Shown: positions 12,427 through 31,157 of the stretch, piece after piece
Numbering within the stretch: position 1 is the first letter of the stretch
Layout: each line of letters starts with the position of its first letter
Assembly (NCBI GenBank): GCA_041483195.1
Contig: JBGPFC010000027.1
Span: 1-59,284, forward strand
From: Candidatus Eiseniibacteriota bacterium
Lineage (GTDB): Bacteria; Eisenbacteria; RBG-16-71-46
Length of the DNA stretch: 59,284 nt
Direction: 5' to 3'
Notes under the pieces: model-generated
Database searches by the model: none
What the model was told of the DNA's origin: nothing
Seen by the model: the letters and a program-made list of their open reading frames with translations, nothing else
Position numbers and translations under genes: made by a program

Positions 12427-14472
12427 GTGAAACGAGCGCTCATCCTGATGCTTCCCGTCGTCCTCCTGACCGCCGCCGCTCCATCCCCATCGCCCCCCGC
12501 GATCGCCGACGCGGATCGCTACCTCGCGCAGTTCGTGGATCCCTCGGTCTCGCCACGCGACGACTTCTTCCACTACGCCGTGGGCAAGTGGCTCCGCGAG
12601 CATCCCATTCCCGCCAACGAACGCTCGTGGGGAATCAGTCACGTCGTGCAGGAGGAGACCTACCAGCGGCTGGTTGCGATCAGCGGCGACGAAGCCGCAG
12701 ACGCGAACGCTCCCGCCGGGAGCAACGCGCAGAAGATCGGGGATTTCTGGTACGCGGCGATGGACTCGGCCACGAGCGCCCGGCAGGGCATCGAGCCGCT
12801 GGCCGAGGAATTCGGACGCATCCGGGCGGTGCGCGACCGCAAGGGCCTGCTCGATGAGATCGCCCATCTCCAGTACATCGGCGTCGGCGCCATGTGCGGC
12901 CTCTACATCTTCCAGGACGAGAGGAACAGCGACCGTTACGCGGTCCACCTCTACCAGGGCGGCCTCGGGCTGCCGAACCGGGACTACTACTTCGACACGG
13001 ACGACCGATCGAAGATGCTGCGCCGCGAGTACGTCACCCACGTCGCACGCATGTTCCAGCTGCTCGGCGACGACTCCACCAGCGCCCGCGCGAACGCCTC
13101 GACCGTGATGAGCCTCGAGACCGAGCTGGCAGGCGCCTCTCGTAAGCTCGCGGACATGCGCGATCCGATCGCGAACTACAACGCGATGTCGGTCGACGGG
13201 GTCGCGACGCTGGCGCCCTCCGTTCGCTGGCGGGAGTTCCTCGCGGAGGGGAATATACGCGGACTCGACAGCGTCGTCGTGGGGCAGCCCGAGTTCTTCA
13301 AGCAGCTCGAGAAGTCCCTCAGCACGCGGAGCCTCGACCAGTGGAAGACCTATCTCCGCTGGCAGCTGGTGGGCGCCTTCGCCGCGGAGGCGGGCGGCCG
13401 CTTCGACGAGCAGAACTTTCATTTCTTCGGCACCATCCTGAACGGCACCCCCGAGCAGCGCCCGCGCTGGAAGCGGATGCTCGACGAGGAGGAGGGCTAC
13501 CTCGGCGATGCGCTCGGTCAGCTCTACGTGCAGCGCTACTTCTCGCCGCGGACCAAGGCGCGCTACGAGAAGCTCACCGACGACATCTTCGCGGCGTTTC
13601 GCGAGCGCATCCGCGCGCTCGACTGGATGAGCGAGTCCACGCGTCAGCGCGCGCTGGCCAAGCTGAACGCGGTCACCAAGAAGGTCGGCTACCCCGAGCA
13701 CTGGCGGGACTACTCGAGCTACCGGGTGGACCGCGGCTCGTTCCTCGGAAACTGCCTGCGCGGCAACGTGTGGCGGACCGAGTACTACATCCAGAAACTT
13801 CACAAGCCGGTGGACCGCACCGAGTGGGAAATGACGCCGCAGACCTACAACGCATACTACAACCCGTCGAACAACGAGATCGTGCTGCCCGCCGCCATCT
13901 TCATCCTGCCCGGGATCGCGGACTCCCTCGTCGACGACGCGATCGTCTATTCGTACGCGGGCGGCACGACCATCGGGCACGAGATCACGCACGGCTTCGA
14001 CGATGAGGGGCGCCAGTTCGACGAGCACGGAAACCTGCAGAACTGGTGGACCGCGGAGGACGAGACGGAGTTCAAGCGCCGCACCGCGCTCATCGTCCGC
14101 CAGTTCGACGACTACGTCGCCGTCGGCGATCTGCACGTGAACGGCAACGCGACCCAGGGCGAGAACATCGCCGACCTCGGAGGAAGCCTGCTCGGCTGGG
14201 ACGCCTTCACCCGGACCGAGCAATACAAGCGGGGCGCGCCGGTCGGCGGGCTCACGCCCGCGCAGCGTTATTTCATCGGCTGGGCGCTCGGCTGGATGAA
14301 TCAGCTGCGCCCGGAGAATCTTGCGGTGCGCGTCAAGACCGACGTCCACGCGCCGAGCTTCCTGCGGGTCACCGGTCCGGTCTCGAACCTGCCTCAATTC
14401 TACGAGGCCTACGGGGTGCGCCCGGGCGACCGGATGTACCGCGCCGATTCGGTGCGGGTGAAGATCTGGTGA
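12427..14472 (+). CDS. M13 family zinc metallopeptidase (neprilysin/PepO-like), secreted
   Basis: Signal peptide, DDFFHY, NAYYNPSNNEIVLPAA, GHEITHGFDD (HExxH) and GENIAD. GTG start after GGAG. Confidence 0.95.
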   Translation: MKRALILMLPVVLLTAAAPSPSPPAIADADRYLAQFVDPSVSPRDDFFHYAVGKWLREHPIPANERSWGISHVVQEETYQRLVAISGDEAADANAPAGSNAQKIGDFWYAAMDSATSARQGIEPLAEEFGRIRAVRDRKGLLDEIAHLQYIGVGAMCGLYIFQDERNSDRYAVHLYQGGLGLPNRDYYFDTDDRSKMLRREYVTHVARMFQLLGDDSTSARANASTVMSLETELAGASRKLADMRDPIANYNAMSVDGVATLAPSVRWREFLAEGNIRGLDSVVVGQPEFFKQLEKSLSTRSLDQWKTYLRWQLVGAFAAEAGGRFDEQNFHFFGTILNGTPEQRPRWKRMLDEEEGYLGDALGQLYVQRYFSPRTKARYEKLTDDIFAAFRERIRALDWMSESTRQRALAKLNAVTKKVGYPEHWRDYSSYRVDRGSFLGNCLRGNVWRTEYYIQKLHKPVDRTEWEMTPQTYNAYYNPSNNEIVLPAAIFILPGIADSLVDDAIVYSYAGGTTIGHEITHGFDDEGRQFDEHGNLQNWWTAEDETEFKRRTALIVRQFDDYVAVGDLHVNGNATQGENIADLGGSLLGWDAFTRTEQYKRGAPVGGLTPAQRYFIGWALGWMNQLRPENLAVRVKTDVHAPSFLRVTGPVSNLPQFYEAYGVRPGDRMYRADSVRVKIW

Positions 14473-14515
14473 GGCGGAGGTCTCTCGAGTGGAATAGCTT
14501 TCGCACTCGGGACGC

Positions 14516-14872
14516 ATGAGGTTCGCGACGTTCGGACGCGGGGTATGGGACTGCATCACCGGTTCCACGGTGGGGATCCCCACGGCTCAGGTTCCGAGCG
14601 TGCTCACGCTTGGCGTTCATCTCGACCCGGTGAGCGGCGGGGGCGTGATCGGATTCGCGCTTCCCAGGGGGGGAGGTGTGCGCATCGAGCTGCTGGACGT
14701 GGCGGGGCGGCGCGTGCGAGGGGTGCTCGATGCCGATCGACCAGCTGGGCCGGGAGAGGTCGCGATCGACTCGCGGGATGATGGGGGCCGGGATCTCAAG
14801 AACGGGCTCTACCTCGTGAGGCTCGCCACGCCCACCGGGGTGCGAATCACGCGGTTCATGCTGCTCCACTGA
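14516..14872 (+). pseudogene. Orphan C-terminal fragment: last propeller strand plus FlgD/T9SS-CTD-like domain
   Basis: Begins RFATFGRGVWD (typical end of a BNR/VPS10 propeller), then IELLDVAGRRVR...KNGLYLVRL. No signal peptide. Confidence 0.65.
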
Positions 14873-15219: not shown

Positions 15220-15729
15220 ATGTACGTATCTCTCAGGCGCACCCTCGCGATCGCGTTCGCGGCCGTGGCGATTCTCGCCCCGGCGCTCGCCTTCGCGGAT
15301 GGCGACGTCCACGTCGCGCTCACCGCGCAGCGGGTGACGGTCACCGATGGCCACGACGCGTACCTGCCGGCCGACAAGGCGCGGCCGGGCGACGTGATCG
15401 AGTACCGCGCCGTCTACCGTAACGACGGCCGCGGCACGGTGCGCGACATGTTCGCCACGCTGCCGGTGCCGAACGGGCTCGAGTACCTGCCGAAGACGGC
15501 GGCGCCCGCGGTGGTCCTCGCGAGCACCGACGGCCAGTCCTTCTCCGCGGTCCCGCTCGTGCGCAGGGAGCGCACGGCCGACGGACGCGAGGTCGTTCGG
15601 GAGGTCGCCCTCTCGGAATACCGCGCGCTGCGCTGGCCGATCGGGACGCTGGCGGCCAGGGAATCGCGCACGGTCCGCGCGCGCATGCGGGTCGCCCCGC
15701 TCGCGTCCGTGGCCGTCGTCGCGCACTGA
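15220..15729 (+). CDS. Small secreted DUF11-like protein (operon gene A)
   Basis: Signal peptide ending ALAFA; ARPGDVIEYRAVYRN...PVPNGLEY...GTLAARESRTVRARMRV; GGAGG RBS. Confidence 0.88.
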   Translation: MYVSLRRTLAIAFAAVAILAPALAFADGDVHVALTAQRVTVTDGHDAYLPADKARPGDVIEYRAVYRNDGRGTVRDMFATLPVPNGLEYLPKTAAPAVVLASTDGQSFSAVPLVRRERTADGREVVREVALSEYRALRWPIGTLAARESRTVRARMRVAPLASVAVVAH

Positions 15730-15775
15730 GCGCCGGTCACCATTTTCCAATTCCATGGCCGCGTGACCCCGCGCG

Positions 15776-15799
15776 CCGTTCGCGCTATCGCGCGAACGG
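15776..15799 (+). promoter_or_regulatory. Intergenic hairpin between genes A and B
   Basis: CCGTTCGCGC-TATC-GCGCGAACGG, a perfect 10-bp stem. Confidence 0.5.
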
Positions 15800-15868
15800 A
15801 CGCCTTCGGCGCGACGGCTTCGAAGCAGGAGCACGATTCGTGACCGCACCAACCCTCGGAGTGTGAAC

Positions 15869-18481
15869 ATGAACGCCCTGAAGAACGCTGGCTTCGGCCG
15901 GCGCCTCATCGTCAGCATCGCCGCTGTCGCGCCGATGCTGGGAACTCTCGCCCTGCTGGCGACCGCGGCTCACGCCGCCCCGCCGGCGGGCACGCCGATC
16001 GGCAACACGGCGACCGCGACGTACGTCGACGCGGCGTCGCAGACTCACACCGTCACCTCGAACCCTGTGACGACGACCGTCCAGCAGGTCGCGAGCTTCA
16101 CGCTCACGGCGAACGGCACGCGCACCGCGGCGCCCGGCGGGCAGGCGGTCTTCCCTCATGTGCTGACCAACACGGGCAACGGCACCGACACCTTCGCGCT
16201 GACGTCGTTGAACCTCGGCGGTGACAACTTCGACATGACGGGCCTCGCGATGTACGCGGACGCCGATGGCAACGGCGTCGCTGACAACTTCACGCCGCTG
16301 GCCACCACCGGGCCCCTCGCTCCGGGTGGGCAGTTCCAATTCGTCCTGATGGGCAACGTCCCGGGCGCCCAGGTGGCCGGCGACATCGCCCGCGCGCGCG
16401 TCTCGGCGATGAGCGGCTTCGACGCAGCGCAGACGGCGAGCAACGACGATCAGGTCACGGTCACGGGCAACGCCGTGATGTCGGTGACCAAGTCGATCAA
16501 TCAGAACAACGGCGCTTCGCCGAGCGGCCCGTACACCTACACCCTCTCGTACGCGAACTCGGGCAACGCGACCGCGACCGCGGTGCGCCTGACCGACGTG
16601 ATCCCGGCGGGCATGACGTACGTGGCGGGCAGCGCGCGCTGGAGCGTGACGGGCGCGACGGCGCTGACGGATGCGGACTCGACCGACGCGCAGGGCGCCG
16701 TTCCGAACACGGTGCGATTCGACTTCAATGTCGCGACCGGCGGAGCGGTCACCGCGCAGCTGGCGCAGGTGCCCCCCGGGCAGTCCGGAAGCGTGACCTT
16801 CCAGATCAACGTGAACGCGGGCCTCGCGCCGCAGGTCATCGACAACTCCACGCGCTACGCGTACAACGACGGGGCCGCGAACGTCGGTCCGTTCTTCACC
16901 AACCTCGCGTCCTTCACCGTGAACCAGGCGGTCAGCCTGACGTTCGCCGGCCAGACCGTGGCCAGCGCGCTGCAGGGCGCGGTCGTAACGTTCACGAACC
17001 AGCTCGTCAACACCGGCAACGGGTCCGACTCGTTCGACATCACGGCGAATCTCGGCTCGTTCCCGGCCGGCAGCTCGGCCACGCTCTACCAGAGCAACGG
17101 CGTCGCGCTGCTCACCGACACGAACGGCAACGGCATCCCGGACACCGGTCCCGTCGCGGCCGGCACGTCGTACGACGTGATCGTCAAGGTGCAGCTGCCG
17201 TCGGCCGCGACCGGCGGTCCGTTCTCGATGACGAAGACGGCGACGTCGTTCTCGAACCCGCTGGTCTCGGCCGTCGCGACCGATGTCCTCACGACGATCG
17301 TTGGCAACACGGTCGACGTGACGAACAATTCGGCGCTGCCGGGCGCTCCGGGCGCCGGCGCCGGCCCCGAGGTCGCGTACGTGATTCTCAACGCCACGAA
17401 CCCGGGCACGACCACGCGCCTCACGCTGTATGTGAACAACACCAGCGCCCAGAACGACAACTACGACCTCGCGGCCAGCACCGACAACACGTTCGGCTCG
17501 CTGACGCTGCCGGCCGGTTGGACCGTGACGTTCCGCAACGCGGCGAACAGCGTCATCACCAACACCGGCGTCATCGCCGGCGGCGGGGCGACGCTGGTTT
17601 ACGCCGACGTGGACGTGCCCGCGGGCGCGGCGGCGGCGGACGTGGACCTGTTCTTCCGCGGGCGCTCGCCCGTCAGCGGGGCGCTCGACCGCATCCACGA
17701 CCTCGTGCGCGTCAGCGTCGTCCGCAGCCTGACGCTGGTGCCGAACAACACCGCCCAGGTGATCCCGGGTGGGTTCGTGGTGTATGCGCACATGCTGACC
17801 AACACCGGCAACGTCCTCGAGGGCAACGCCACCGGGAGCTTCGTGTCGCTCGCGTCCGCGAACGACCAGGCCGGCTGGAGCTCGGCGTTGTACTGGGATA
17901 CGAACGGCTCGGGAATCTTCGACGGCGGCGATCAGCCGCTGACGGATCTCTCGGCGCTCGGCGGGCTCGCGCCCGGCACCAGCGTTCGGCTGTTCGTGCA
18001 GGTGTTCGCGCCGGCCGGCGCTCCGCTCGGGCAGTTGAACACGACCACGGTCTCGGCGACGACGTCGAATCTCGCATACACCGATCCGGTCCCGGCGGTC
18101 GCGAACGCGACGGATGGCACCACGGTAATCAACGGCCAGCTGACGATCGCCAAGACGCAGAGCATGGACCGCGACTGCAATGGCCTGGCGGACTCGACCT
18201 TCACGTCGACCAACCTCGCCTTCGGCGCGATTCCGGGCGCCTGCATTCGCTACGAGATCACCGTGACGAACATCGGCACCACGGCGGTCACCGGCGTCGT
18301 GGTGAACGACGCGACCCCGGCGAACACGTGGTCGTGGAACGCAGCTTCGGCGAGCACGACCGTCGGCTCGATCGTGGTTCCGGCGGACGGCGCCGCGGGA
18401 GCGGTGACGGCGGCCATCGGCACGCTGGGACCCGGGCAGTCGGCGGTGATCCAGTTCAGCGTGCGGATCGTCTTCCCGTAA
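15869..18481 (+). CDS. Secreted multi-Ig/DUF11 protein (operon gene B; putative fibre shaft subunit)
   Basis: Signal peptide ending ATAAHA; T/N/A/V-rich beta protein; repeated H/N-x-L-x-NTGN units; DxDGNG-type loops; one complete and one C-terminally incomplete DUF11 domain. Confidence 0.9.
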   Translation: MNALKNAGFGRRLIVSIAAVAPMLGTLALLATAAHAAPPAGTPIGNTATATYVDAASQTHTVTSNPVTTTVQQVASFTLTANGTRTAAPGGQAVFPHVLTNTGNGTDTFALTSLNLGGDNFDMTGLAMYADADGNGVADNFTPLATTGPLAPGGQFQFVLMGNVPGAQVAGDIARARVSAMSGFDAAQTASNDDQVTVTGNAVMSVTKSINQNNGASPSGPYTYTLSYANSGNATATAVRLTDVIPAGMTYVAGSARWSVTGATALTDADSTDAQGAVPNTVRFDFNVATGGAVTAQLAQVPPGQSGSVTFQINVNAGLAPQVIDNSTRYAYNDGAANVGPFFTNLASFTVNQAVSLTFAGQTVASALQGAVVTFTNQLVNTGNGSDSFDITANLGSFPAGSSATLYQSNGVALLTDTNGNGIPDTGPVAAGTSYDVIVKVQLPSAATGGPFSMTKTATSFSNPLVSAVATDVLTTIVGNTVDVTNNSALPGAPGAGAGPEVAYVILNATNPGTTTRLTLYVNNTSAQNDNYDLAASTDNTFGSLTLPAGWTVTFRNAANSVITNTGVIAGGGATLVYADVDVPAGAAAADVDLFFRGRSPVSGALDRIHDLVRVSVVRSLTLVPNNTAQVIPGGFVVYAHMLTNTGNVLEGNATGSFVSLASANDQAGWSSALYWDTNGSGIFDGGDQPLTDLSALGGLAPGTSVRLFVQVFAPAGAPLGQLNTTTVSATTSNLAYTDPVPAVANATDGTTVINGQLTIAKTQSMDRDCNGLADSTFTSTNLAFGAIPGACIRYEITVTNIGTTAVTGVVVNDATPANTWSWNAASASTTVGSIVVPADGAAGAVTAAIGTLGPGQSAVIQFSVRIVFP

Positions 18482-18489
18482 CGAAACAG

Positions 18490-18525
18490 CGAGAGGCGCG
18501 GGGGAATGGCACCCCGCGCCTCTCG
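18490..18525 (+). terminator. Strong intergenic stem-loop directly after gene B (attenuator or mRNA stabiliser)
   Basis: CGAGAGGCGCGGGG-N8-CCCCGCGCCTCTCG, a perfect 14-bp stem with no U tract. Confidence 0.6.
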
Positions 18526-18634
18526 TGGCGACCGGCGTGAGACGACGACGGCCCCCCAACCACCTCGTGGCATCGGGCGCGGACGGCACCCTCGGCCGTC
18601 CGGCCCGATGACCCCGGGGGAACGGAAACGGCAC

Positions 18635-21600
18635 ATGAACCGAGCAACGCCCCTCGACCGTCGGTGTCGCGCCCTGCGGGCGTGGCTTCACGCGTGGGCG
18701 CTCGGGTTCGCTCTGCTCTCCGCTTCCACCGTCCGCGCCGCGCCGCTCACCGGCACCCCCATCGACAACACGGCCTACGCGGCAGGGAGCGACTCGCTCA
18801 CGGGCGCGCCGCTTTCGGAGGCGAGCAACACCGTCACCGCCATCGTTCAGGCGCTCGAGGGCGTATCGCTGTGGCCCGACCGCCGCGCGTCGGCGGCCGC
18901 GGGCGCCAGCGTCACGTTCGCGCACCAGATCTTGAACCGCGGCAACGCGAGCGCCGACTTTCGCATCGACGCGATCGACCTCGGAGCTGACGCTTTCGAC
19001 TTCGGCGCGTTCTCGCTCGTGGATGACGCGAACCGCGACGGCGCCGTGGGACCGGGCGACATTCCGGTCGCCAACGGCGGCGCGCTGACGCTCGCCGCGG
19101 GCGACTCGGCCTACCTGCTCGTCACCGTGAGCGTTCCACTCACCGCGCCCGGCTCGGCGCTCGGCCGTTTCTCGCTTCGCGCCACGAGCCTCTTCCAGTT
19201 CGTGACAGCGTCGGTCACGGACTCCGTCGACACGAACGCTCTCTCGCAGCCCCCGGCGCTCGCTTTCTACTCCGGCCCGGGCTACGCCGCGACCATCCGC
19301 GCGACCGCGCTCGGCGCGCCGCTCTTCGTGCAGGCCTCGGCGCCGCAGTGCAACCTGAGCCCGGGCGAGCCCGACACCGTGCGCATCACCCTCACGTCGC
19401 AGCTGACCGGCGACTCGGACACCTTTGGTGCCATCGAGACCGGCCCCGCCACCGGGATCTTCCGCATCAACGGCGCGCCCGTCTCCGCGGTGCAGGGCTC
19501 CGCGCAGACCGGAGACGGCGTGGTCGAGCAGGCGCGCGGCGATCTCATCACCGCCACGCTGCCCGGTTGCGGCGCGACCGAGACGCGCGCGAACGTGTGG
19601 GTCGAGCCGAGCGGCACGGTGTTCGATTCGCGCAGCGACGCCGCGGTGGCCGGGGCGCGGGTTCAGCTCGTGGACCTGACGGGCGCCGGGAACGGCGGCG
19701 CGGCGGGCGGGCGCGCGACCGTCCTCGCGCTCGATGGCGTCACGCCGGCGCCCGCCGACGTGCTCACCGACGCCGCTGGCCGCTTCTCGTTCCCGGTCGT
19801 GAACGCGAGCACCTACCGGCTAGTGGTGACGCCGCCGCCGCCTTACCGATTCCCTTCGCTCGCCGCGATCGGGTCGCTCCCCGCGGGCCGCGTGCTGGAC
19901 GTCGCCGGTTCGTACGGCGGGCCATTCACGATCGCGACCAATGGCGAGCCGGTGCGCCTCGACGTGCCCGTCGACGGCAATGCATCCGTCGCGTTGTTCG
20001 TCGAGAAGACCGCGTCCCGGCCCGTGGTCGAGTGGGGCGACGAGTTCGACTTCCGCATCAGGGTCGCGAATCGCTCCGACAGCGCACTCGCGTCGGTGAC
20101 GCTCGCCGACGGCCTCCCTCCGGGGTTCGTGTTGGTGCGCGGAACCGCGCGCCTCGCCGGCGCGCCGGCCGCCGATCCGCAGGGGGGCGCGGGCCCCGCG
20201 CTCGGATTCGCGCTCGGCGCGCTCGCGGCGCACGACGAGCTCGAGCTGCTCTACCGCGTTCGCGTCGGCCCCAACGCGGCCCCCGGGGACGCGCGCAGCG
20301 AGGTCACGGCCCACGCGGGTGGGGTGGTGTCGAACACCGCGACCGCGACGGTCCGCGTGCAGGGCGACGCGTTTGCAGACGAAGGCCTCGTGACCGGCAC
20401 GGTGTACTACGACGCGAACGTCGACGGCATGCAATCGGGCGGCGAACCCGGCCTCGCCGGCGTCCGCCTTTACCTCGACGACGGCACCTTCGCCGTGACC
20501 GACGAGCACGGCCGCTACAGCTTCACCGGGGTCACGCCCCGCACCCACGCCCTCAAGGTGGACACGGCCACGCTTCCGCCGATGGCGAAGATCGCCGATC
20601 GCGACCACCGAGGCGCGGGTCTCCCGGGCGTCCGCTTCGTCGATCTGACGCGTGGCGACCTCGTGCGCTCGGATTTCGCCGCCGTCGGGGACACCACGCT
20701 GTTGCGCGACGCGACCGACCGGCGCGTGGCGCTCGCGAGCCGCGGCGCCGACGAGCGCGCGCGCTGGCTGGCCCTCGGGCCCGAGGCGCTCGCGGGTGCG
20801 CGCGGTCTCACCGACCCGCGCGCGTTGCCCGCCTCGAGAATCGTGACCGGCGAGAGCGAGCTTCCGGTCGTGATGACCTCGCCGGCCGCGGCCGTCGCCC
20901 CTTCGTCCGTATCGCCCGTGGCGCTCGAGGCCACGGCGATCGACCACATCCTGCCGACGCTCGAGCCCGAGTTGGGCTTCGTGGGGCTCAGCGACTACGA
21001 CACGGTTGCGACCAACCAGATCCCGGTCGCGGTCAAGGGCCGCCTCGGCACCCGGCTAGTGCTGCGAGTCAACGGCACGCCGCTGCCCGAGTCGCGCGTC
21101 GGCCGCCGGTTCCTGGCGCCGCGCCAGGATCTGGAAGTGTGGGAGTACATCGGCGTGCCGTTGCGGCCCGGACTCAACGTGCTCGAGCTCGCGCCGCCGC
21201 CGGGCGGCCGTGTCTCGCTGCGCATCGTGGCGCCCGGCCCGTTCGCGCGACTCGAGCTGAGCGCGCCGCGCGGCGTGCCCGCCGACGGCCACAGCGCGGC
21301 CTCGCTGCTGCTGCGTGCGGTGGACATCGCGGGCGTCCCGGTCGGCGAGCGGACCCTGGTCACACTCGAAGCGGGCGCCGGGCGGCTCTCGGCATCCGAC
21401 CTGGACCCCGCCTCGCCGGGCCTGCAGCTCGCGATCGAGGGCGGCACGCTGCGGGTGCCGCTGGTCGCGCCCGCGACGCCGTCCACGTACAAAGTCACGG
21501 CGTCCGCGGGGGATGTCCGCGTCGCCGAGAACGTGGAGTTCGTCCCCGACCTGCGCCCCCTGATCGCGGTCGGCGCGCTCGAGGGCGTGGTCTCGCTGCG

Positions 21601-23989
21601 CCATTTCCGTCACGGCACCGACGTGGGCGCGCAGCCGGGCGATGGCTTCGAGGCGCCCATCGAACAGTTCGCCAGCTCGAGCCAGAACGGCCGCGCGTCC
21701 GCCGCGGCCCACGGTGCCATGTTCGTGAAGGGCCGCGTGCGTGAACGCCTGCTGCTCACGGTGGGTTGGGACTCGGATCGCCCACGCGACCAGCGGCAAT
21801 TCCGAGACCAGCAGCCCGAGCGCGGCTTCCCCGTGTTCGGCGACGCCGCTGCCCGCGGCTGGGAGGCGCAGTCCACCGGGCAGCTCTACGCTCGGCTCGA
21901 ACAACGCGACGCGTCGGTGCTCTACGGCGATTTCGTCACCGGGGGCGCGGCCACTCGCTCGCTCGGCAACTACAGTCGCAGCCTCACCGGCGCGGCGGCA
22001 CGATGGGAGACACCCGCGGGACTCGTGAGCGCGTTCTCGAGCCGCGACCGCTCGACCCACGCGATCGACGAGCTCCGTGGTGAGGGCACCTCGGGTCCCT
22101 ACCAGCTCACGCGGCTGCCCATGCTCGAGAACTCCGAGCGCGTCGAGATCATCGTGCGCGACCGCGCGCAGCCCTCGATCGTGCGCTCCGCCACGGGACG
22201 CCAGCGCTTCACCGACTACGAGATCGAGCCCCTGACCGGGCGCCTCCTCATGCGCGCGCCGGTGCCGAGCGTGGACGCCGACCTGAATCCCATGTACGTG
22301 CGCGTCACCTACGAAGTCACGGGCGGCGCTGCGCCAGCTTGGGTGCATGGCATGGAGGGACGCGTGCGGGTGAGTCCGCGGCTCGATCTGGGCGGCACCT
22401 ACGTCGACGACCACGATCCGTCGGCGCCATTCGAGCTGCGCTCGATCACGGCCTCCACGCGCCTCGACCCGGGCACGGTGTTCGAAACCGAGTGGGCCGC
22501 GACTCGACATCTCGGCGGAGCGAACGGCGACGCGGGGCGCTTCGAGCTACGGCGCGAGGACCCGGGCCTGCGCGCGCGCGTGTGGGGCGCGGCGACCTCG
22601 ATCGGATTCGACAACCCCGGCGCCGGCATGGCCAGCGGCCGAAGCGAAGCCGGCGTGAACCTGAGTGCGCGTCTGGCGGGCCGGACACGGCTGAACACCG
22701 AGGCGCTGTTCTCATCCGACGCGCTGGGCCGCGAGCGGCGTGAGGGTCTCATGATGTCGCTCGACCGCGCGCTCGACGACGCGCTGCGCGGCGAGCTGGG
22801 CCTGCGCTGGGCGCGTGCGCGCCGGCGGGGCGCGACCTCCGACCCGGCGAGCGCCGCGGTGCGCGCCAAGCTTTCCGCGCAGTGGCCGAAGCACCCGGAA
22901 TGGAGCGGCTACGGCGAGCTCGAGCAGGACACGCGCGAATTCGACCGCCGCATGGCCGCCCTCGGCGGCGAATATCGCTTCAGCTCGAGGGGTCGCCTCT
23001 ACACGCGCCACGAGCTGCTCTCCAGCTTCTCGTCGGCGTGGGCGCTGGCGGGTGCTCAGAGCCAGGCGCAAAGCGTGGTCGGCATCGACGCCGACGTCGC
23101 GAAGGACGCCCACGTTTTCAGCGAGTACCGGCTCGGGGACGTGCTCGGCGGTCGTGAGGCGCAGGCGGCGGTCGGGCTTCGCAACGGCTGGGCGCTTCCG
23201 GGCGGCACCCGCGTCGGGACCGCGATCGAGCGCGTGGATCCGCTCCGCGGCAGCGACGCCGGCGCGAGCACGGCGATCACCGGCAGCGTGGAGTGGACCG
23301 GCGACGCGGTGTGGAAGGGCTCGTCGCGCGCGGAACTGCGCACGAGCCGGTCCTCCGACCAGTTCCTGCAGGGCATGGCGGGGGCCGTGAAGCTCGACTC
23401 CGCATGGACCGGACTCGGGCGCTATCTGCTCACGCTCGAACGCCGGCACCGTCAGGGCAGCGCCGCACGCGAGCGGATGCAGCTCGCGGCGGCGTATCGC
23501 CCGGGCGGCGCGTGGGACGCGCTCGCCCGGTGGGAGCTGCACTACGACCTCGAGACGATTCCGCCGGAGACGCCCGTGCGCCGCGTCGCGAACGTCGCGG
23601 GGTTCGCGGCCACCGGGCGATCGAAGGGGTACGAGGGGTCGCTCGCGTGGGCGGGCAAGCTCACGCGGGAGCAATCGGCGGGGATCACCAGCACGGGCGG
23701 CGCGGAGTGGCTGCACGGCCGCGTCACGCGCGACATCGGCCGCAGCTGGGACTGCGGTCTCACGGCCAGCGTGCTCGCGGGTCGCCGGCTCGCGCAACGA
23801 CGGTACGGCTTCGGCGCAGAGGCCGGGAGAATTCTCCCCGGCGGCACCTGGCTGTCGCTGGGCTTCAATCGGTTCGGCTACGTCGACGACGAGCTGACGG
23901 GGGAGGAGTGGACGCGCACCGGCGCCTACCTGCGCGTGCGGGTCAAGTTCGACGAGACCACATTCCAGCACTGGGAGGTGCGTCCGTGA
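18635..23989 (+). CDS. Large DUF11/SdrD-B-domain protein with probable C-terminal outer-membrane beta-barrel (operon gene C)
   Basis: Signal peptide ending STVRA; Ig domains; complete DUF11 (LFVEKTAS...ADGLPPG...SNTATATV); SdrD-B-like GTVYYDANVDG..GEPGLAGVRLYL; about 700 aa of amphipathic strands ending GAYLRVRVKFDE. Confidence 0.85.
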   Translation: MNRATPLDRRCRALRAWLHAWALGFALLSASTVRAAPLTGTPIDNTAYAAGSDSLTGAPLSEASNTVTAIVQALEGVSLWPDRRASAAAGASVTFAHQILNRGNASADFRIDAIDLGADAFDFGAFSLVDDANRDGAVGPGDIPVANGGALTLAAGDSAYLLVTVSVPLTAPGSALGRFSLRATSLFQFVTASVTDSVDTNALSQPPALAFYSGPGYAATIRATALGAPLFVQASAPQCNLSPGEPDTVRITLTSQLTGDSDTFGAIETGPATGIFRINGAPVSAVQGSAQTGDGVVEQARGDLITATLPGCGATETRANVWVEPSGTVFDSRSDAAVAGARVQLVDLTGAGNGGAAGGRATVLALDGVTPAPADVLTDAAGRFSFPVVNASTYRLVVTPPPPYRFPSLAAIGSLPAGRVLDVAGSYGGPFTIATNGEPVRLDVPVDGNASVALFVEKTASRPVVEWGDEFDFRIRVANRSDSALASVTLADGLPPGFVLVRGTARLAGAPAADPQGGAGPALGFALGALAAHDELELLYRVRVGPNAAPGDARSEVTAHAGGVVSNTATATVRVQGDAFADEGLVTGTVYYDANVDGMQSGGEPGLAGVRLYLDDGTFAVTDEHGRYSFTGVTPRTHALKVDTATLPPMAKIADRDHRGAGLPGVRFVDLTRGDLVRSDFAAVGDTTLLRDATDRRVALASRGADERARWLALGPEALAGARGLTDPRALPASRIVTGESELPVVMTSPAAAVAPSSVSPVALEATAIDHILPTLEPELGFVGLSDYDTVATNQIPVAVKGRLGTRLVLRVNGTPLPESRVGRRFLAPRQDLEVWEYIGVPLRPGLNVLELAPPPGGRVSLRIVAPGPFARLELSAPRGVPADGHSAASLLLRAVDIAGVPVGERTLVTLEAGAGRLSASDLDPASPGLQLAIEGGTLRVPLVAPATPSTYKVTASAGDVRVAENVEFVPDLRPLIAVGALEGVVSLRHFRHGTDVGAQPGDGFEAPIEQFASSSQNGRASAAAHGAMFVKGRVRERLLLTVGWDSDRPRDQRQFRDQQPERGFPVFGDAAARGWEAQSTGQLYARLEQRDASVLYGDFVTGGAATRSLGNYSRSLTGAAARWETPAGLVSAFSSRDRSTHAIDELRGEGTSGPYQLTRLPMLENSERVEIIVRDRAQPSIVRSATGRQRFTDYEIEPLTGRLLMRAPVPSVDADLNPMYVRVTYEVTGGAAPAWVHGMEGRVRVSPRLDLGGTYVDDHDPSAPFELRSITASTRLDPGTVFETEWAATRHLGGANGDAGRFELRREDPGLRARVWGAATSIGFDNPGAGMASGRSEAGVNLSARLAGRTRLNTEALFSSDALGRERREGLMMSLDRALDDALRGELGLRWARARRRGATSDPASAAVRAKLSAQWPKHPEWSGYGELEQDTREFDRRMAALGGEYRFSSRGRLYTRHELLSSFSSAWALAGAQSQAQSVVGIDADVAKDAHVFSEYRLGDVLGGREAQAAVGLRNGWALPGGTRVGTAIERVDPLRGSDAGASTAITGSVEWTGDAVWKGSSRAELRTSRSSDQFLQGMAGAVKLDSAWTGLGRYLLTLERRHRQGSAARERMQLAAAYRPGGAWDALARWELHYDLETIPPETPVRRVANVAGFAATGRSKGYEGSLAWAGKLTREQSAGITSTGGAEWLHGRVTRDIGRSWDCGLTASVLAGRRLAQRRYGFGAEAGRILPGGTWLSLGFNRFGYVDDELTGEEWTRTGAYLRVRVKFDETTFQHWEVRP

Positions 23990-26900
23990 TGCGCCGCGCG
24001 TTGATCGGCGCGCTCGCGGCGCTGGCCGTCGTGCTGATCGCCTCGCCGGCCGCTTCGCAGGTCGTGCGCGCGTTCGGCACGCGCTTCAGCACCAACCAGC
24101 CGGGCGACATCACGCTGATCGGCAACACGATCATGACCTGCAATGGCGGCGGCGCCTGCACCAACGGGCGCAACGGTGCCGGCGGCAGCGTGAACGACAA
24201 CGACTTCACGATGGTGTACACCGACGTCGACGCCGACGGCACGACCTTCTCATCGAGCAGCGCCACGCTCGCGCTGCCGCCCGGCGCGACGGTGCTGTGG
24301 GCGGGATTGTATTGGGGCGGCTACACGAACAACGCAGCGCGCAACACCTGCCGGCTGCAGACACCGGCCGCGGGCTACGCCGCCCTCACCGCGGCGCAAA
24401 TTGATGCCAGTGGCCAGGCATACCAGTGCTTCGCGAACGTCACCGCGAACGTGCAGGCGGGCGGCAGCGGCGCGTACACCGTTGCGAACGTGCGCTCGAC
24501 GCCCAACTCGACGAACGTGCACGGCGGCTGGTCGATCGTGATCGTCTACAGCCTCGCCTCCCAGCCGCCGCGCAACCTGGTCGTGTTCGACGGCTACGCG
24601 CTGGTCTCGGGCACCACGACGGTCAACATCAACGTGACGGGCTTCGTGACGCCGCCCGCCGGCATCGTGAACACCAAGCTGGGCGTGGTCGCGTACGAAG
24701 GCGACCTCGGATTCCCCGGGGATGCGTTCCGGCTGAACGGCACGTCGCTCGCCGACGCGAACAACCCGGCGAACAACTTCTTCAACAGTTCGATCAGCCT
24801 GCTCGGCACCACGTTCGCCGCGAAGAACCCGAATTACCTGAACCAGCTCGGCTTCGACTCCGACCTGATCTCCGCGAATGGCATCCTGCCGAACGGCGCG
24901 ACCAGCGCGACCATCACGCTGACCACGAACGGCGACACGTACTACCCGGGCGTGGTGGCGTTCGCGACCGACCTGTACGCGCCGGTGTTCGACGCCGCCA
25001 ACTTCACCAAGACCGTGTCCGACGTGAACGGCGGCAGCGTACAGCCGGGCGACGTGCTCGAGTACACGGTCACGATGCGCAACAACGGCCAGGACCACGC
25101 GATCGCCTGCGTCATGCGCGACACGATCCCGGCCAACGTCGCATACGTCGCGGGCTCGCTGCAGGTGGTGAGCGGGCCGAACGCCGGCGCCAAATCCGAC
25201 GCGGCGGGCGACGACCAGATGGAGTACGCCGCCGCCTCGCGCTCGGTGGTCGCGCGGTTGGGGGCCGGAGCGACCTCGGCGGCCGGCGGGCAGATGGACA
25301 TTGGCGTCACGAGCAGCGTTCGCTTCCGGGTGTCGGTCACGCCGCCGGCGCCCAACGGCAGCTCGGTCTCGAACCAGGGCTGGCTGGCGTTCACGGGCGC
25401 GCAGTCGGGGGTGAACTTCGTCGCGCAAAGCGACGGGAACGTGGTCGTCGGCGGGCTGCAGCCCACGGTCGTCACGGTGGCGGCCTCGCGCATGCTCGGC
25501 ACGGTCTTCGAGGACGTGGGCTACGGCGGCGGCGCGGGCCGCTCGCTCGCAGCATCGGGCGGCAGCGGCCGGCCCGGCGCGCGCGTCGAGCTCTACGACG
25601 GAGCCGGCGCTTTCATACAATTCGCCCGCACCGACGCGACGGGCCTGTACACGTTCGACGGATGGCCGGCGGGGAGCTACACGGTGCGCATCGTGAACTC
25701 GTCGGTGCGCTCGTCGCGCCCGGGCGCCGCCGCTGGCCTGCTGCCGGTGCAGACCTGGCGAACTACCGAATCGACCGGGTCCGCGGTCGCGGTCACCGAT
25801 CATGTGGGCGGCGAGAATCCGTCGATCGTCGACGCCGACTCGAACACAACGTCCGCCACGCTCGCCTCACTCACGACCGGCGCGGCCACCCCGCAGTCGG
25901 TGACTACGGTGACGCTGGGTGCCGGCGACATCGCCGGCCTGGACTTCGGGCTCAACTTCGACACCATCGTGAGCACGCGCGACGCGGGACAGGGCTCGCT
26001 CCGGCAGTTCCTGCTCAATGCCAACGCGCTCGGCAACGCCGGGCTCGCGCAGGCCGGGCAGACCGCGGGCGTCGAGACGTCGGTGTTCATGATCGGTGAC
26101 GGTCTCGCGCACCCGGGGCTGCGCGCGGGGACCCCGAACCTGCTCAGCGCGGGGGTCGCGCGTATCTCGCCGATCGCAACGCTCCCCGCGATCACCGACC
26201 CCGGCACGCGCATCGACGGCGAAACGCAGACGACGGACGTCGGCAACACCAACGCCACCACGATGGGCGGAGGGCTCGTGGCCGGCGTCGACGCCACGCC
26301 CGTGCCGCCGGTCGCCGGCCCCGAAGTCGAGATCCGCGACGGCGCGGGGCTCGCGATCGGCCTCGACCTGCAGGACGCCGGCGAAACGGTGGCGCGGGTC
26401 GCCATCTCCGGGTTCGGTAATGCGGCGGGCAGCGCGAACGACGCATGCGTGCGCGTGGGCGCCGCCGCGAACAACGCCACGCTGACGAATTGCGTGATCG
26501 GCGCGACCGCGCTCGCCTGGGCCGATCCCGGTGCAGCGCTGCGCGCCGGCGGAGACCTGGTGCGTGTGTCGGGGGCCGATGCCGGCACCCTCACGAGCTG
26601 CCTGCTCGGCTGGTCGGCCGGCAGCGCGCTGACGCTGGCTTCCGGCTCCGACGGCTGGATCATGAGCGGCTGCGAGCTGCGCGGCAACTCGATCGGCAAC
26701 CCCGCGCGCGGCGCGCTCTCGATCGAGGCGAGCCTGGGTTCGTCGGTGAGCGCGTGCTGGATCGGCGAAACGGAAGGCAACGGCATCGACGCGCGCACAA
26801 GCACGGGCTCGAACACGTTCACCGACGTCACCGTGCGCCGCAGCGGCCTCGGCGCCGGCGCGACCGCGGCCAGCGCGGGCGTGAGGCTGGGTGGGACCGG

Positions 26901-28917
26901 GAATCGCGTGGACCGCTGCGTGCTGACGCAGAACTTCGGCGCCGGCCTGCAGGTGCCGAGCGGCGTCACCAACAACACGCTGACGCGCAACGCAATCTCG
27001 CTCAACGGGACGATCCTGAACAACGGCGGCGCCGGCCCGTCTGGCGAGGTCGGCATCGATCTGCAGTCGCCGGGCGACGACGTCACGCAGGGCACCGCGC
27101 CGTATCGCACCCTCAATGACAACGGCGACGGCGATGCCGGCGGCAACGCGCTGCTCAACTACCCGGTACTCGCGAGCGCCGTGCTCGCGAACGGCAGCTT
27201 CACGCTCACCGGCTGGGCGCGGCCCGGCTCCACCATCGAGCTGTTCGTGAGCGACGGCGAAGCGAGCGGATTCGGCGAGGGCGCGGCCTGGTCCGCGACG
27301 TTCGTCGAGGGCTCGGGCGCCGACCTCGATGCGGGGGTCAGCGCGTACCCGGCCACGGTGAACGGGCTGGCGCAGGGCACCGACGTGACGAACCGATTCC
27401 GTTTCACCGTGGCGGCGCCTCCCGGAGTCGCCTCGGGCGTGGCGTTGACCGCGACCGCGACGATCGCGGGGACGGGCACTTCGGAGTTCTCGGGCGTGGT
27501 CCTGGTTTCGACGGGCGTGAGCATGAGCGGCTGGGCGTACGAGGACCTCAGCCACGACTCCTCGCGCGGCGCGTCCGAGGCGGGAACGGGCGCCGCGCTG
27601 TACGCGAAGCTCTACGTCAGCGGCAACCCGATCGCTTCGCAGGTCGTGCCGGTGGACGTCGCGACCGGCGCGTACGCATTCACGTTCGTCAGCTCCGGCG
27701 CGTGGGACGTGCACGTCGACACCGACTCGAATCCCGCAACGTTCGCCCCCACGTATCCCGCGGGCTGGATCGGAACGGAGAATCCGGCCGGTGTCCGCGC
27801 CTCGCTCACGGTCAACGCCACCGACGTCGCCAACGTGAACTTCGGCATGTGGCACGGCAGCCGCGTCGACGGCGTCGTGTTTCGAGACGACGGCACCGGC
27901 GGCATCGCGAACGACGGCGTGATGCAGGCGGGTGAGGCCGGGCAGTCGCCGGTCCGCGTGCGACTCGTCGCCGCAGCGTGCGCGGGCGGCGAGTGCGACT
28001 CGACGCTGACGGACGGCGCCGGCGCGTTCACGCTGTGGCTGGCCGCGGCGGCATCCGGGCCGAACGTGATGGTGCAGGCGGTCGTCGCCTCGGGCTGGCT
28101 CTCCACCGGCGGCGGGGAGGGGACGACCGGCGGCGCATACGATCGCCCCTCGGACGCCGTCAGCTTCTCCGCCGTCGCGGGCCTCCCGTACTCGGGGCTC
28201 GCGTTCGGCGGCGTGCCGCGCAATTCCTGGATCGCGCCCCAGGCGGGAACGATCGCGGCGGGCGGCGTCGCCTTCTACGCACACCGCCTCACCGCGGGCA
28301 GCGCGGGAAGCGCCTCGTTCTCGGCCGCCGAAGCGCCGTCGCCCGCGCTGCCCGGATGGAGCGTTGAGCTCTACCGCGATCTCAACTGCAACGGCGCGAT
28401 CGACGCCGGTGAGCCGATGCTGGTGCCGGCGACGGCGATCGCGCTCGCGGCGGGCTCCAGCGTATGCGTGGTGGCGAAGCACTCGGCGCCGGCGGGTGCC
28501 CCCACGGGCGCGCTCGAGACCGCGACGCTCACCGCGAGCTTCCAATACGCGAATGCGAGCCCCGCCCTCGCGGGGAGCGACGCGCTCGACGACGTGACCA
28601 CGATCGCGCTTGCAAGCGGCCTCGTCATCACGAAGAGCGTGGATCTCACGACCGCGAGGCCGGGCGATTACCTCGTCTACACGATCACCTACCTCAATCC
28701 CGGCGGTCAGGCGCTCTCGAACATCGTCCTCCGCGATGCCACCCCGGCATGGACGGTGTTCGACTCCGCCACCTGGGCCGGCCCGGGCTTCGGGATCACC
28801 GGTTGTTCGCTCGCCCAGCCGGCCGCCGGCGCCTCGGGACCGGTCTCATGGACGCTCGCGGGGACGCTCGCCCCGGGTGGAACCGGCAGCGTGACCTACC
28901 GCGTTCGGGTGCAGTAG
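23989..28917 (+). CDS. Large secreted adhesin-like protein: N-terminal beta domain, DUF11, SdrD-B-like domains, right-handed beta-helix, C-terminal incomplete DUF11 (operon gene D)
   Basis: ATG overlaps the gene C stop (TGATG); signal peptide; RDAGQGSLRQF motif preceding G/N/I-rich helix repeats; ends GTLAPGGTGSVTYRVRVQ. Confidence 0.88.
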   Translation: MRRALIGALAALAVVLIASPAASQVVRAFGTRFSTNQPGDITLIGNTIMTCNGGGACTNGRNGAGGSVNDNDFTMVYTDVDADGTTFSSSSATLALPPGATVLWAGLYWGGYTNNAARNTCRLQTPAAGYAALTAAQIDASGQAYQCFANVTANVQAGGSGAYTVANVRSTPNSTNVHGGWSIVIVYSLASQPPRNLVVFDGYALVSGTTTVNINVTGFVTPPAGIVNTKLGVVAYEGDLGFPGDAFRLNGTSLADANNPANNFFNSSISLLGTTFAAKNPNYLNQLGFDSDLISANGILPNGATSATITLTTNGDTYYPGVVAFATDLYAPVFDAANFTKTVSDVNGGSVQPGDVLEYTVTMRNNGQDHAIACVMRDTIPANVAYVAGSLQVVSGPNAGAKSDAAGDDQMEYAAASRSVVARLGAGATSAAGGQMDIGVTSSVRFRVSVTPPAPNGSSVSNQGWLAFTGAQSGVNFVAQSDGNVVVGGLQPTVVTVAASRMLGTVFEDVGYGGGAGRSLAASGGSGRPGARVELYDGAGAFIQFARTDATGLYTFDGWPAGSYTVRIVNSSVRSSRPGAAAGLLPVQTWRTTESTGSAVAVTDHVGGENPSIVDADSNTTSATLASLTTGAATPQSVTTVTLGAGDIAGLDFGLNFDTIVSTRDAGQGSLRQFLLNANALGNAGLAQAGQTAGVETSVFMIGDGLAHPGLRAGTPNLLSAGVARISPIATLPAITDPGTRIDGETQTTDVGNTNATTMGGGLVAGVDATPVPPVAGPEVEIRDGAGLAIGLDLQDAGETVARVAISGFGNAAGSANDACVRVGAAANNATLTNCVIGATALAWADPGAALRAGGDLVRVSGADAGTLTSCLLGWSAGSALTLASGSDGWIMSGCELRGNSIGNPARGALSIEASLGSSVSACWIGETEGNGIDARTSTGSNTFTDVTVRRSGLGAGATAASAGVRLGGTGNRVDRCVLTQNFGAGLQVPSGVTNNTLTRNAISLNGTILNNGGAGPSGEVGIDLQSPGDDVTQGTAPYRTLNDNGDGDAGGNALLNYPVLASAVLANGSFTLTGWARPGSTIELFVSDGEASGFGEGAAWSATFVEGSGADLDAGVSAYPATVNGLAQGTDVTNRFRFTVAAPPGVASGVALTATATIAGTGTSEFSGVVLVSTGVSMSGWAYEDLSHDSSRGASEAGTGAALYAKLYVSGNPIASQVVPVDVATGAYAFTFVSSGAWDVHVDTDSNPATFAPTYPAGWIGTENPAGVRASLTVNATDVANVNFGMWHGSRVDGVVFRDDGTGGIANDGVMQAGEAGQSPVRVRLVAAACAGGECDSTLTDGAGAFTLWLAAAASGPNVMVQAVVASGWLSTGGGEGTTGGAYDRPSDAVSFSAVAGLPYSGLAFGGVPRNSWIAPQAGTIAAGGVAFYAHRLTAGSAGSASFSAAEAPSPALPGWSVELYRDLNCNGAIDAGEPMLVPATAIALAAGSSVCVVAKHSAPAGAPTGALETATLTASFQYANASPALAGSDALDDVTTIALASGLVITKSVDLTTARPGDYLVYTITYLNPGGQALSNIVLRDATPAWTVFDSATWAGPGFGITGCSLAQPAAGASGPVSWTLAGTLAPGGTGSVTYRVRVQ

Positions 28918-29704: not shown

Positions 29705-30071
29705 CCCGCGCGGTCCGGTTCGGAAGTCCGATTCGGCCGGCGTGACGCTGGTCGAGCTCATGATCGTGCTGGTCATCGTCGCGATCGGCATCATGACCCT
29801 CTCGGGGGTGCAGACGCGGTCTTCATCGGACGTCTACTCCACCGGGCGGCGCACCCGCGCGCTCGCGGTCGCGCAGACCCAGATCGAGGTCGCGCGCAGT
29901 CTCGGCTACCTGGGAGCCGTGCCGGATTCGGGGCTGACGGACGGTTTCAACTGGCGGACCGAAGTGGACTCGGTCGATTTCGGTCTGCTGCGGGCGAGGG
30001 TCACGGTCACCTGGGCGGAGTCCGGAACGCCGTCCTCCGTGCAGCTCGTCAACCTGATGTCCGCGCGATGA
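29697..30071 (+). CDS. Type IV minor pilin, PilV-like
   Basis: SAG|VTLVELMIVL; position in the cluster; ends RVTVTW. Confidence 0.8.
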   Translation: MTSPRGPVRKSDSAGVTLVELMIVLVIVAIGIMTLSGVQTRSSSDVYSTGRRTRALAVAQTQIEVARSLGYLGAVPDSGLTDGFNWRTEVDSVDFGLLRARVTVTWAESGTPSSVQLVNLMSAR

Positions 30072-30670: not shown

Positions 30671-30708
30671 GGCGGAACGATTTCCGCCGGCGACTGGAGG
30701 AGCTTGGT

Positions 30709-31155
30709 ATGACCCCTCGATTTGTCAATGAACGCGGAGCCGCGATGGTCCTGGCGCTCGGCGTGCTCGCGGTGCTCGCGGTGCTCGCGATGGTCGTCGT
30801 GGCCATCGTGGTATCCGAGAAGCAGACGGCGCTGTCCGACTACTCCGCCGACCGCTCCTTCTACTCGGCCGACGCCGCGACCGAAGCGGGGGTCAACTGG
30901 ATCCGCTCGCAGCCGATTCCACCGCCGATCATGGACGCGAGCAGCAATGTGTACCTCGCGAACGGGTTCACCGCGCTGAGCAACGATCACAACTACAAGT
31001 TCGACGTTCAGTTCGTCCGCAAGCAGCTCCGGCCGGGCTGGAGCGTCGAGTACAAGGACTACGTCTTCGACGTTGCGGCCACGGGCACCAGCGTGCAGGG
31101 GTCGGAGTCCAAACTCGACGTCAACGCCACTCGGCTCTACCGGGAGGGTTACTGA
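30709..31155 (+). CDS. Type IV minor pilin, PilX-like
   Basis: NERG|AAMVLAL lacking E5 (typical of PilX), FYSADAATEAG; GGAGGAG RBS. Alternative GTG start at 30667. Confidence 0.82.
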   Translation: MTPRFVNERGAAMVLALGVLAVLAVLAMVVVAIVVSEKQTALSDYSADRSFYSADAATEAGVNWIRSQPIPPPIMDASSNVYLANGFTALSNDHNYKFDVQFVRKQLRPGWSVEYKDYVFDVAATGTSVQGSESKLDVNATRLYREGY

Positions 31156-31157
31156 TC

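Follow-up and report, generated by a model that had tools for sequence, protein, structure and literature searches.

An operon of Candidatus Eisenbacteria that may build an outer-membrane-anchored fibre by sharing one DUF11 domain between two polypeptides

The DNA analysed here, a stretch of 59,284 nucleotides referred to below as the window (G+C about 70%), comes from a member of Candidatus Eisenbacteria, an uncultured soil or water bacterium. Between positions 15220 and 28917 it carries an operon of four co-directional open reading frames (ORFs) on the + strand, which we call A, B, C and D. Judging from profile comparisons and structural models, B and D both end in a DUF11 domain without its last four short strands, and the N-terminal ~36 residues of mature B and C are the piece that these domains lack; we refer to the two parts as acceptor and donor. 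We consider it probable that the operon encodes an outer-membrane-anchored fibre or modular stalk, in whose assembly two polypeptides each contribute a part of one DUF11/CLIPPER domain.

The features of the operon are collected in Table 1. The start codon of D overlaps the stop codon of C by one base. The frame of C is open from 18506, and its most likely start is the ATG at 18635, which opens a hydrophobic leader ending in STVRA, directly ahead of APLTGTP. As read from the sequence, each of the four proteins has a Sec-type signal peptide without a lipobox Cys, and hydrophobic leaders precede the donor motif at the same position in the homologues of B, the nearest of which carry the source name 'Candidatus Eisenbacteria bacterium'. 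Pfam searches found DUF11 in B, DUF11, SdrD_B and CarboxypepD_reg in C, and DUF11, DUF7927, SdrD_B and a right-handed beta-helix in D; the DUF11 (PF01345) scores of B, C and D were 38.6, 40.3 and 49.8 bits, respectively (gathering cut-off 24.6). Gene A scored 18.6 bits with the same profile, below the cut-off, and 24.4 bits with TIGR01451 (cut-off 24), an NCBIfam model that matches all four proteins alike.

Table 1. Features of the A-B-C-D operon, in window coordinates (aa, amino acids)
Feature	Position	Strand	Description
Gene A	15220..15729	+	169 aa; signal peptide and one DUF11-like domain
Gene B	15869..18481	+	870 aa from ATG 15869; 872 aa from alternative GTG 15863; candidate shaft subunit
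B signal peptide	15869..15976	+	cleavage between AHA and APPAGTP, read from sequence
B donor element	15977..16090	+	mature residues 1-38; Asn10 at 16004-16006
B internal complete DUF11/CLIPPER domain	16457..16936	+	intact Lys172-Asp207-Asn290
B acceptor	18134..18478	+	C-terminal DUF11 without last ~30 profile positions; Lys726 at 18152-18154, Asp778 at 18308-18310
Stem-loop between B and C	18490..18525		14-bp, GC-rich
Gene C	18635..23989	+	~1784 aa from ATG 18635; signal peptide, donor, Ig-like stalk, large beta-barrel
C donor element	18740..18850	+	APLTGTPIDN...SNTVTAIVQ; Asn at 18767-18769
C outer-membrane beta-barrel region	21563..23953	+	~40 long strands in model
Gene D	23989..28917	+	1642 aa from ATG 23989; candidate tip adhesin
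D N-terminal domain	24061..24990	+	family unassigned; kept in some distant operons
D internal complete DUF11 domain	24994..25479	+	Pfam match; TIGR04226 20.1 bits, below cut-off of 30
D right-handed beta-helix region	26470..26997	+	PF13229, 40 bits (cut-off 25.9)
D acceptor	28621..28914	+	truncated C-terminal DUF11; Lys at 28633-28635, Asp at 28735-28737

A preliminary description of this DNA had noted that complete DUF11 domains within B and D continue past a strand of the form TF/YxVxV, that the last DUF11 domains of both proteins stop right after it, and that the missing piece reappears at the mature N-termini of B and C. In its essentials this pattern is borne out. In B, the final DUF11 domain aligns with positions 16-84 of the 114 in the Pfam profile, the match ending 3 residues before the stop codon, and that of D matches positions 2-84 of 114, ending on the final residue of the protein. 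The AlphaFold2 model of B confirms the continuation beyond the TFQINV strand of its internal domain, where it has four short strands. The same pattern is found at the mature N-terminus, where the donor strands occupy residues 7-10, 12-17, 23-27 and 31-34.

The generality of the pattern was examined in 80 related loci, gathered with a 26-row alignment of B. Profiles of the acceptor (the last 125 residues of B) and the donor (mature residues 1-38) were derived from the B alignment and run over all ORFs of these loci and of the window, with donor matches taken at a domain E-value of 0.1 or less. Among the related loci, all complete B genes (67/67) reach their stop codon 0-3 residues past the acceptor profile, and all D genes (33/33) do so within 0-4 residues. 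The donor profile matched 86 whole and 5 cut B genes, 39 whole and 8 cut C genes and one unclassified cut ORF, together with B and C of the window (C at 12.3 bits), and among the matches listed every donor sits immediately behind a signal peptide. No A or D gene of the 80 loci or the window gave any match to it. The roles originally assigned, namely donor plus acceptor in B, donor plus membrane barrel in C and acceptor only in D, thus hold across the related loci, where the donor/acceptor logic is the same.

A second line of evidence is provided by natural fusion proteins. Four of these (P0125, P0126, P0284 and P0285), retrieved by an exhaustive search and by one restricted to longer proteins, contain two to five B-like units per chain, and at each of their 12 B-to-B junctions a full acceptor is followed by the donor motif within 0-3 residues, with no signal peptide in between. 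In nine others (P0286-P0294; 3120-3192 aa), a whole B is fused to a C-like protein with a barrel. A donor-like motif (G-T/S-x-hydrophobic-x-N/D-x-A ... S-N) can be recognised by eye behind the acceptor in 9/9 of these B-C fusions, and the donor profile detects it in 2/9 at E < 0.01. The DUF11 match of Pfam reaches position 98 of the profile at one of the junctions in P0125, where the Asn of the donor is its last residue. In the fused proteins the first domain of the next unit lies directly behind the completed domain, giving a linear array. In these relatives the donor and acceptor halves are one domain. Recurring as it does across many phyla, and among naturally fused proteins too, the pattern of truncation and complement is far above chance.

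The four tandem-B fusions have no barrel. They carry DUF7933 domains followed by two Asp-rich repeats (GDLNCDGIV..DD), which occupy the C-terminal ~60 residues, and these proteins may be anchored by another route. The repeat is possibly dockerin-like; Pfam gave no such match in P0125 (E <= 0.001), and we make no claim of it.

We then turned to predicted structures. Mature B (834 residues, 130-row alignment) was modelled by AlphaFold2 as seven immunoglobulin (Ig)-like beta-sandwich domains, with a predicted local distance difference test score (pLDDT) of 94.3 and a predicted template modelling score (pTM) of 0.59. Foldseek searches with this model returned generic Ig arrays only, including ciliary central-apparatus chains, the Ig-like domains of PrgB and alpha-2-macroglobulins. 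For complex prediction, residues 585-834 of B were combined with residues 1-165, the donor thus being accompanied by its own first domain. The interaction scores (ipSAE, from predicted aligned errors) of the B-B complex were 0.81, 0.81 and 0.82, against 0.07 for the best of 3 controls. In calibration the mark was reached by 116/157 solved complexes and 2/215 mismatched pairs, figures that apply approximately here as our own alignment was used. The runs had at least 90% of contacts in common, with a partner pLDDT of 90-91. The interface is formed by donor residues 1-38 (plus 68) and residues 720-784 and 814-834, with donor strand 12-17 running antiparallel to strand 771-778. Docking of the N-terminal segment on the C-terminal domain, as proposed in the preliminary description, is supported by these models; the segment is not predicted to dock on its own neighbouring domain.

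What the preliminary description missed, while its proposal of complementation is supported, is that the split domain belongs to a family of isopeptide domains. DUF11 was renamed 'CLIPPER' in a 2025 survey, the accessible part of which reports one solved domain, PDB 9IFR from a Gram-negative adhesin, with an intramolecular Lys715-Asn806 bond and Asp748, and places the Asn of families related to DUF11 17-29 residues ahead of the domain end (PMC12617251). In that part of the survey the word 'split' does not occur, and intermolecular bonds are treated in general terms only (PMC12617251). The intact internal domain of B has residues of the corresponding type and spacing in nearly all homologues (Lys172 in 124/130, Asp207 in 128/130 and Asn290 in 125/130). 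In the split domain they are also nearly invariant and lie on different halves: Lys726 (128/130) and Asp778 (129/130) on the acceptor, and Asn10 (129/130), ~25 residues ahead of the donor end, on the donor. Of 34 D acceptor sequences, at least 90% retain Lys and Asp, and the donor Asn is kept in 86/87 B donors and 42/48 C donors. In the predicted complex, donor residue 12 is touched by both Lys726 and Asp778; this residue and Asn10, two positions apart, share one face of the strand.

Since the split DUF11 is an isopeptide domain, an intermolecular Lys-Asn bond is predicted at each joint. The triad would be divided between subunits, with Lys and Asp on the acceptor and Asn on the donor, and the joints are probably sealed by this self-made bond, giving a covalent lock without sortase. 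The link to known structures by sequence is weak: the internal domain of B matched PDB entry 9ifr_A weakly (E 0.14) and in the Asp region only, a 44-row profile of it gave chance-level azurin and titin matches alone in the PDB, and the fused junction domain of P0125 had no match among PDB sequences.

The only Cys residues of B are at mature positions 734 and 756 (window 18176-18244), flanking an insertion in the acceptor behind the Lys strand. In 35 sequences Cys756 is nearly invariant and Cys734 is the majority residue; a disulfide between the two is predicted as likely.

The gene set itself is well conserved. The following counts are conditional on B, with which the loci were found, and include only loci with room for the gene in question. 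A lies just upstream of B in 77/78 loci, a C stalk lies downstream of B in 55/56 and a C barrel in 50/51, and a D-like gene is present in 42/50. The eight loci without a D-like gene have a longer C, and their 10-kb flanks may stop short of the gene; the one exception, L074, has a different gene order. The loci span Eisenbacteria, Beta- and Gammaproteobacteria, Verrucomicrobia, Nitrospira, Acidobacteria-like organisms ('Angelobacter'), Desulfuromonadales and others. A strong hairpin follows the stop codon of B in 43/67 loci, compared with 6/67 control stretches within B, a conserved feature suggesting that more B is produced than C or D.

The genome from which the window comes (96.8% complete) contains one C, and the acceptor-type domain is confined to B and D. 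Neither a sortase (PF04203) nor an usher (PF00577) has any match in it, as the preliminary description had stated for the operon, and the same is true of the PapD-like chaperone (PF00345, PapD_N); the usher control was positive in E. coli and the chaperone control in 2/14 genomes. Within the phylum the C barrel was found in 84/201 genomes searched (including G014, flagged as unpublished), or 50/121 high-quality genomes, and in 58/86 genomes of the same family. In a species-level genome collection at least 571 of at least 607 candidate stretches were confirmed as relatives of B. The matched records include cultured carriers (Thiobacillus denitrificans RG, Uliginosibacterium sp. H1 and Granulosicoccus sp.), and the model is therefore testable at the bench.

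C-type barrels often occur in two to four copies per genome, with longer stalks and open frames of up to 4862 aa. Some Eisenbacteria loci (L009:2-3898, L023:2-7660 and L024:2-5101) have a second, longer C-like barrel protein upstream of A, with a barrel 33-34% identical. Other stalks, to judge from these sequences, seem to use the barrel anchor as well.

The last 834 residues of C were modelled with a 48-row alignment from the loci (pLDDT 76.9, pTM 0.68). The model shows ~40 long strands in a succession of hairpins over residues 27-823, plus a small four-strand insert, and indicates that C ends in an outer-membrane beta-barrel. C does not belong to the usher family and has no Pfam match to it, nor to any Pfam autotransporter family. 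Classical autotransporters (type Va) have a C-terminal beta-domain of 12 strands, compared with ~800 residues and ~40 modelled strands here. By its predicted strand count, the C barrel is possibly among the largest formed by a single chain. A profile of it had no match among PDB sequences at E <= 1. Structural comparison with VIA-align gave maltoporin (Z 14.6, root-mean-square deviation (rmsd) 15.6, 285 residues aligned), the PapC pore (Z 13.7, rmsd 15.6, 348 aligned) and FimD (Z 11.9, rmsd 8.0, 351 aligned), and Foldseek returned generic barrels (SlpA, LptD and FimD) with TM-scores of 0.17-0.24.

D is highly variable in length, while its last ~140 residues are kept, and they therefore behave as expected of an attachment module. 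Its N-terminal domain matches no Pfam family at E <= 1. The lead given for it by the Atlas, DUF3344, is weak (score 0.90, with the family on 16% of cluster members), and regions resembling this domain are present in other loci.

The small protein A aligns with the acceptor domain of B (hhalign, 95% probability, E 3.9e-8 over 84 columns), and Atlas clusters of similar small proteins bear the labels DUF11/TIGR01451. The preliminary description had treated it as a further acceptor that stops right after the TF/YxVxV strand. This view needs qualification: A has a DUF11-like domain with a stop nearby and no donor, but it ends only roughly at that point, with a tail of ~7-15 residues beyond the equivalent strand, and it is not equivalent to the acceptors of B and D. 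At the Asp column it has Leu, inside a conserved A-T-L-P motif, and its first strand is without the conserved Lys (78 sequences; 40 sequences). Because both residues are missing, A looks like an acceptor unable to lock. One can speculate that such a dead acceptor would bind donors in the periplasm and release them again, or close off the ends of the fibre, in a non-covalent manner; we regard this role as doubtful.

The results presented above suggest the following model. C would be held in the outer membrane by its C-terminal barrel, and its N-terminal donor would plug the acceptor of a B. The donor of this B would plug the next B, or D, so that B units would add head to tail, and we infer a B polymer of more than one unit. 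D would terminate the chain, because it has an acceptor and no donor, and would present its beta-helix and N-terminal domain outward at the distal end. All subunit N-termini would point away from the cell, and each joint would lock itself through an intermolecular Lys-Asn bond, with no need of a sortase. More speculatively, B and D might be exported through the very large barrel of C.

This arrangement recalls a laboratory tool. SpyTag/SpyCatcher and SnoopTag/SnoopCatcher are laboratory splits of isopeptide domains from Gram-positive adhesins, in which the reactive Asn or Asp lies on a short tag and the Lys and the catalytic acid lie on the larger part, and the bond forms spontaneously. The most complete version of our model would be a natural Tag/Catcher pilus of several diderm phyla, in which split isopeptide joints lock autocatalytically once the N-terminal piece has docked, the ~40-strand barrel serves both as covalent anchor and as export pore, A acts as an inverse chaperone that keeps donors bound until assembly, and sortase, chaperone and usher are all dispensed with. 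We offer this version tentatively, as a possibility rather than as an expectation.

Several observations weigh against the fibre model or parts of it. The fragments used for complex prediction fit intermolecular docking and closure within one B alike, and the donor has a pLDDT of 90-92 in the model of the B monomer, which is equally compatible with docking in cis. Moreover, the halves of a split domain may pass such a test through their likeness to solved whole domains, so that the score speaks for fit and not for binding in the cell. The best contacts in the predicted complex pair Lys726 with donor residues 12 and 28, and not with Asn10. Asn29 is conserved as well as Asn10, and the choice between them rests on the published spacing and on the end of one Pfam alignment. 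The barrel model of C is of middling confidence (pLDDT 76.9), and ushers match it no better than porins do. The barrel was found in 0/3 other searched genomes of the same genus, and the system is therefore dispensable. Finally, to judge from the nine B-C fusions, one B unit between anchor and tip is a workable design and suffices in some lineages, so that no polymer with n > 1 need be invoked.

This last point leads to the alternative of a fixed, three-part adhesin of defined length, with the same split joints, in which C, B and D (or A) are each present once and B would not add to B in the cell. In addition to the fusions, where the barrel protein is preceded by a single B unit, it draws on a property of the complex test, which near relatives of a genuine partner pass as well, such that the B-on-B score may reflect the fit of B to D or C. 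However, two to five B-like units are fused head to tail in the four tandem proteins, indicating that chains of B are tolerated; the hairpin behind B suggests an excess of B over C and D; and the full triad is kept on B's own donor and acceptor. On balance we think a fixed adhesin unlikely.

A second alternative is that B closes on itself, its N-terminal piece completing its own C-terminal domain to give a ring-shaped monomer. Both the donor confidence in the single-chain model and the fragment-based complex would be compatible with such a ring. Against this, C has a donor without an acceptor and D an acceptor without a donor across dozens of operons, and these orphan halves can therefore be satisfied only in trans. 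The fused proteins continue as a linear array past the completed domain, and with only two or three residues between the donor and the first domain, the chain of seven domains would need to fold back on itself completely. We therefore hold self-closure to be very improbable. That there is no complementation at all, A-D being independent Ig-repeat surface proteins with stable short C-terminal domains and an N-terminal motif that is the start of the first domain, would suit the finding that the isolated N-terminal 40-mers of B and C match 0 Pfam families at E <= 10 and the report, in the available text of PMC12617251, of some DUF11 domains with seven to nine strands, yet it is scarcely credible given that the N-terminal piece is predicted on the C-terminal domain (controls <= 0.07), that fusion proteins joining both halves exist and that the triad is split yet nearly invariant.

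Several other genes of the window were also noted. The stretch 30068-33803, downstream of D, encodes a PilY1-like protein (PF05567) and another protein that bears a prepilin N-methylation motif (PF07963). A link between the operon and type IV pili was considered and rejected, as neither these genes nor the upstream ORFs have a counterpart beside the operon in the 80 loci; the gene content of 30068-33803 probably represents a separate type IV pilus cluster. Further downstream, a gene for a Sortilin/BNR-repeat protein (35678-36796) lies just upstream of one for a 1260-aa protein (36958-40740) that has 14 FG-GAP repeats and, at its C-terminus, an Ig-like domain of the FlgD type, and the region 35678-40740 seems rich in surface proteins. 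Upstream of A, long ORFs overlap on opposite strands, at 10867-14583 (-) and 12382-14472 (+); the former matches no Pfam family, and neither has relatives beside the operon in other loci. A gene for an SNF2-family helicase of 1286 aa (PF00176, PF00271) occupies 6078-9938.

If the fibre model is correct, it would describe a further class of bacterial surface fibre, widespread in Eisenbacteria, Proteobacteria, Verrucomicrobia, Nitrospira and others, and donor-strand complementation would have arisen independently in a CnaA-like isopeptide domain. The split-and-lock principle exploited by the engineers of SpyTag/SpyCatcher would be used in nature, and the operons would offer a large natural set of related tag/catcher pairs for protein ligation. 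It would also raise the question of how one giant barrel protein exports and anchors folded multi-domain subunits.

Donor-strand complementation is known from chaperone-usher pili, type V pili and TasA. The closest parallel in architecture is to the chaperone-usher pili (type 1 and P), in which an N-terminal donor completes the incomplete Ig-like fold of a neighbour (described in part in PMC11821415). The operon as modelled here shares with them a tip adhesin whose functional part is N-terminal and whose C-terminal domain is an acceptor lacking a donor, the presence of a gene for an outer-membrane barrel, and the polarity of the subunits. The differences are nonetheless substantial. Here the genome has neither a PapD-type chaperone nor a Pfam usher; the donor is a four-strand piece of ~36 residues rather than one strand; the subunit is an 87 kDa protein of seven domains with a DUF11/CnaA-like fold; the barrel is fused to the donor-bearing stalk; and the joints are predicted to be covalent. 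Type V pili of Bacteroidota (FimA/Mfa1) have a lipoprotein precursor with a Cys behind the signal peptide and C-terminal donor strands, in contrast to the mature N-termini found here, which begin AP... without Cys and bear the donor.

Where the lock is concerned, SpyTag/SpyCatcher-type pairs are likewise isopeptide Ig-like domains cut into tag and catcher that reconstitute, whereas the split described here would be natural, would affect a CnaA-like DUF11 domain and serve to build a fibre, and is predicted from sequence. A natural precedent is BsaA of Clostridium perfringens, a member of the TasA family. According to the accessible portion of its description, the N-terminal strand of BsaA enters the next monomer, an Asn-Lys isopeptide bond with a catalytic acid locks it in place, and alanine mutants lose oligomerisation (bioRxiv 10.1101/2024.11.04.621531). 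Donor-strand exchange followed by an isopeptide lock would thus be common to both, but BsaA belongs to an unrelated fold family and is Gram-positive, with single-domain subunits, no barrel anchor and no acceptor-bearing tip adhesin. As far as the available texts go, archaeal threads (Sulfolobus Saci_0406) combine donor-strand complementation with inter-subunit isopeptide bonds (PMC9715654), and haloarchaeal tafi are donor-strand filaments without a chaperone-usher machine (PMC11821415). They share with our model complementation in the absence of that machine, and differ in having other folds, an archaeal origin and no outer membrane; in the threads, the bond joins the N-terminal amine to an Asn of the next subunit but one. 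The Pam pili of Candidate Phyla Radiation (CPR) bacteria are also reported to use donor-strand complementation, in the part of the account available (PMC13278184).

Sortase pili and DUF11/CLIPPER fibrillar adhesins resemble the present proteins in their CnaA/CnaB-type Ig stalks with Lys-Asn bonds, as outlined in the consulted portion of PMC12617251. In these, however, the isopeptide is intrachain and the subunits are joined by sortase, which is lacking here; B ends in RIVFP and D in RVRVQ, with no LPXTG-type C-terminal motif. DUF11 domains are otherwise known, from partial views of the sources, in single-chain stalks such as GhlA of Litorilinea (bioRxiv 10.1101/2025.08.19.671072) and in F-ENA, where they serve only as spacers (PMC11844507). 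In the full-text literature, including few subscription journals and no supplements, we found no description of the operon, of a split DUF11 domain or of a barrel-anchored donor-strand fibre. Taken together, the principle of donor-strand complementation is known and appears here in an unrelated fold; what is new is the multi-strand donor, the seven-domain subunits, the anchor fused to a barrel and the predicted natural Tag/Catcher lock.

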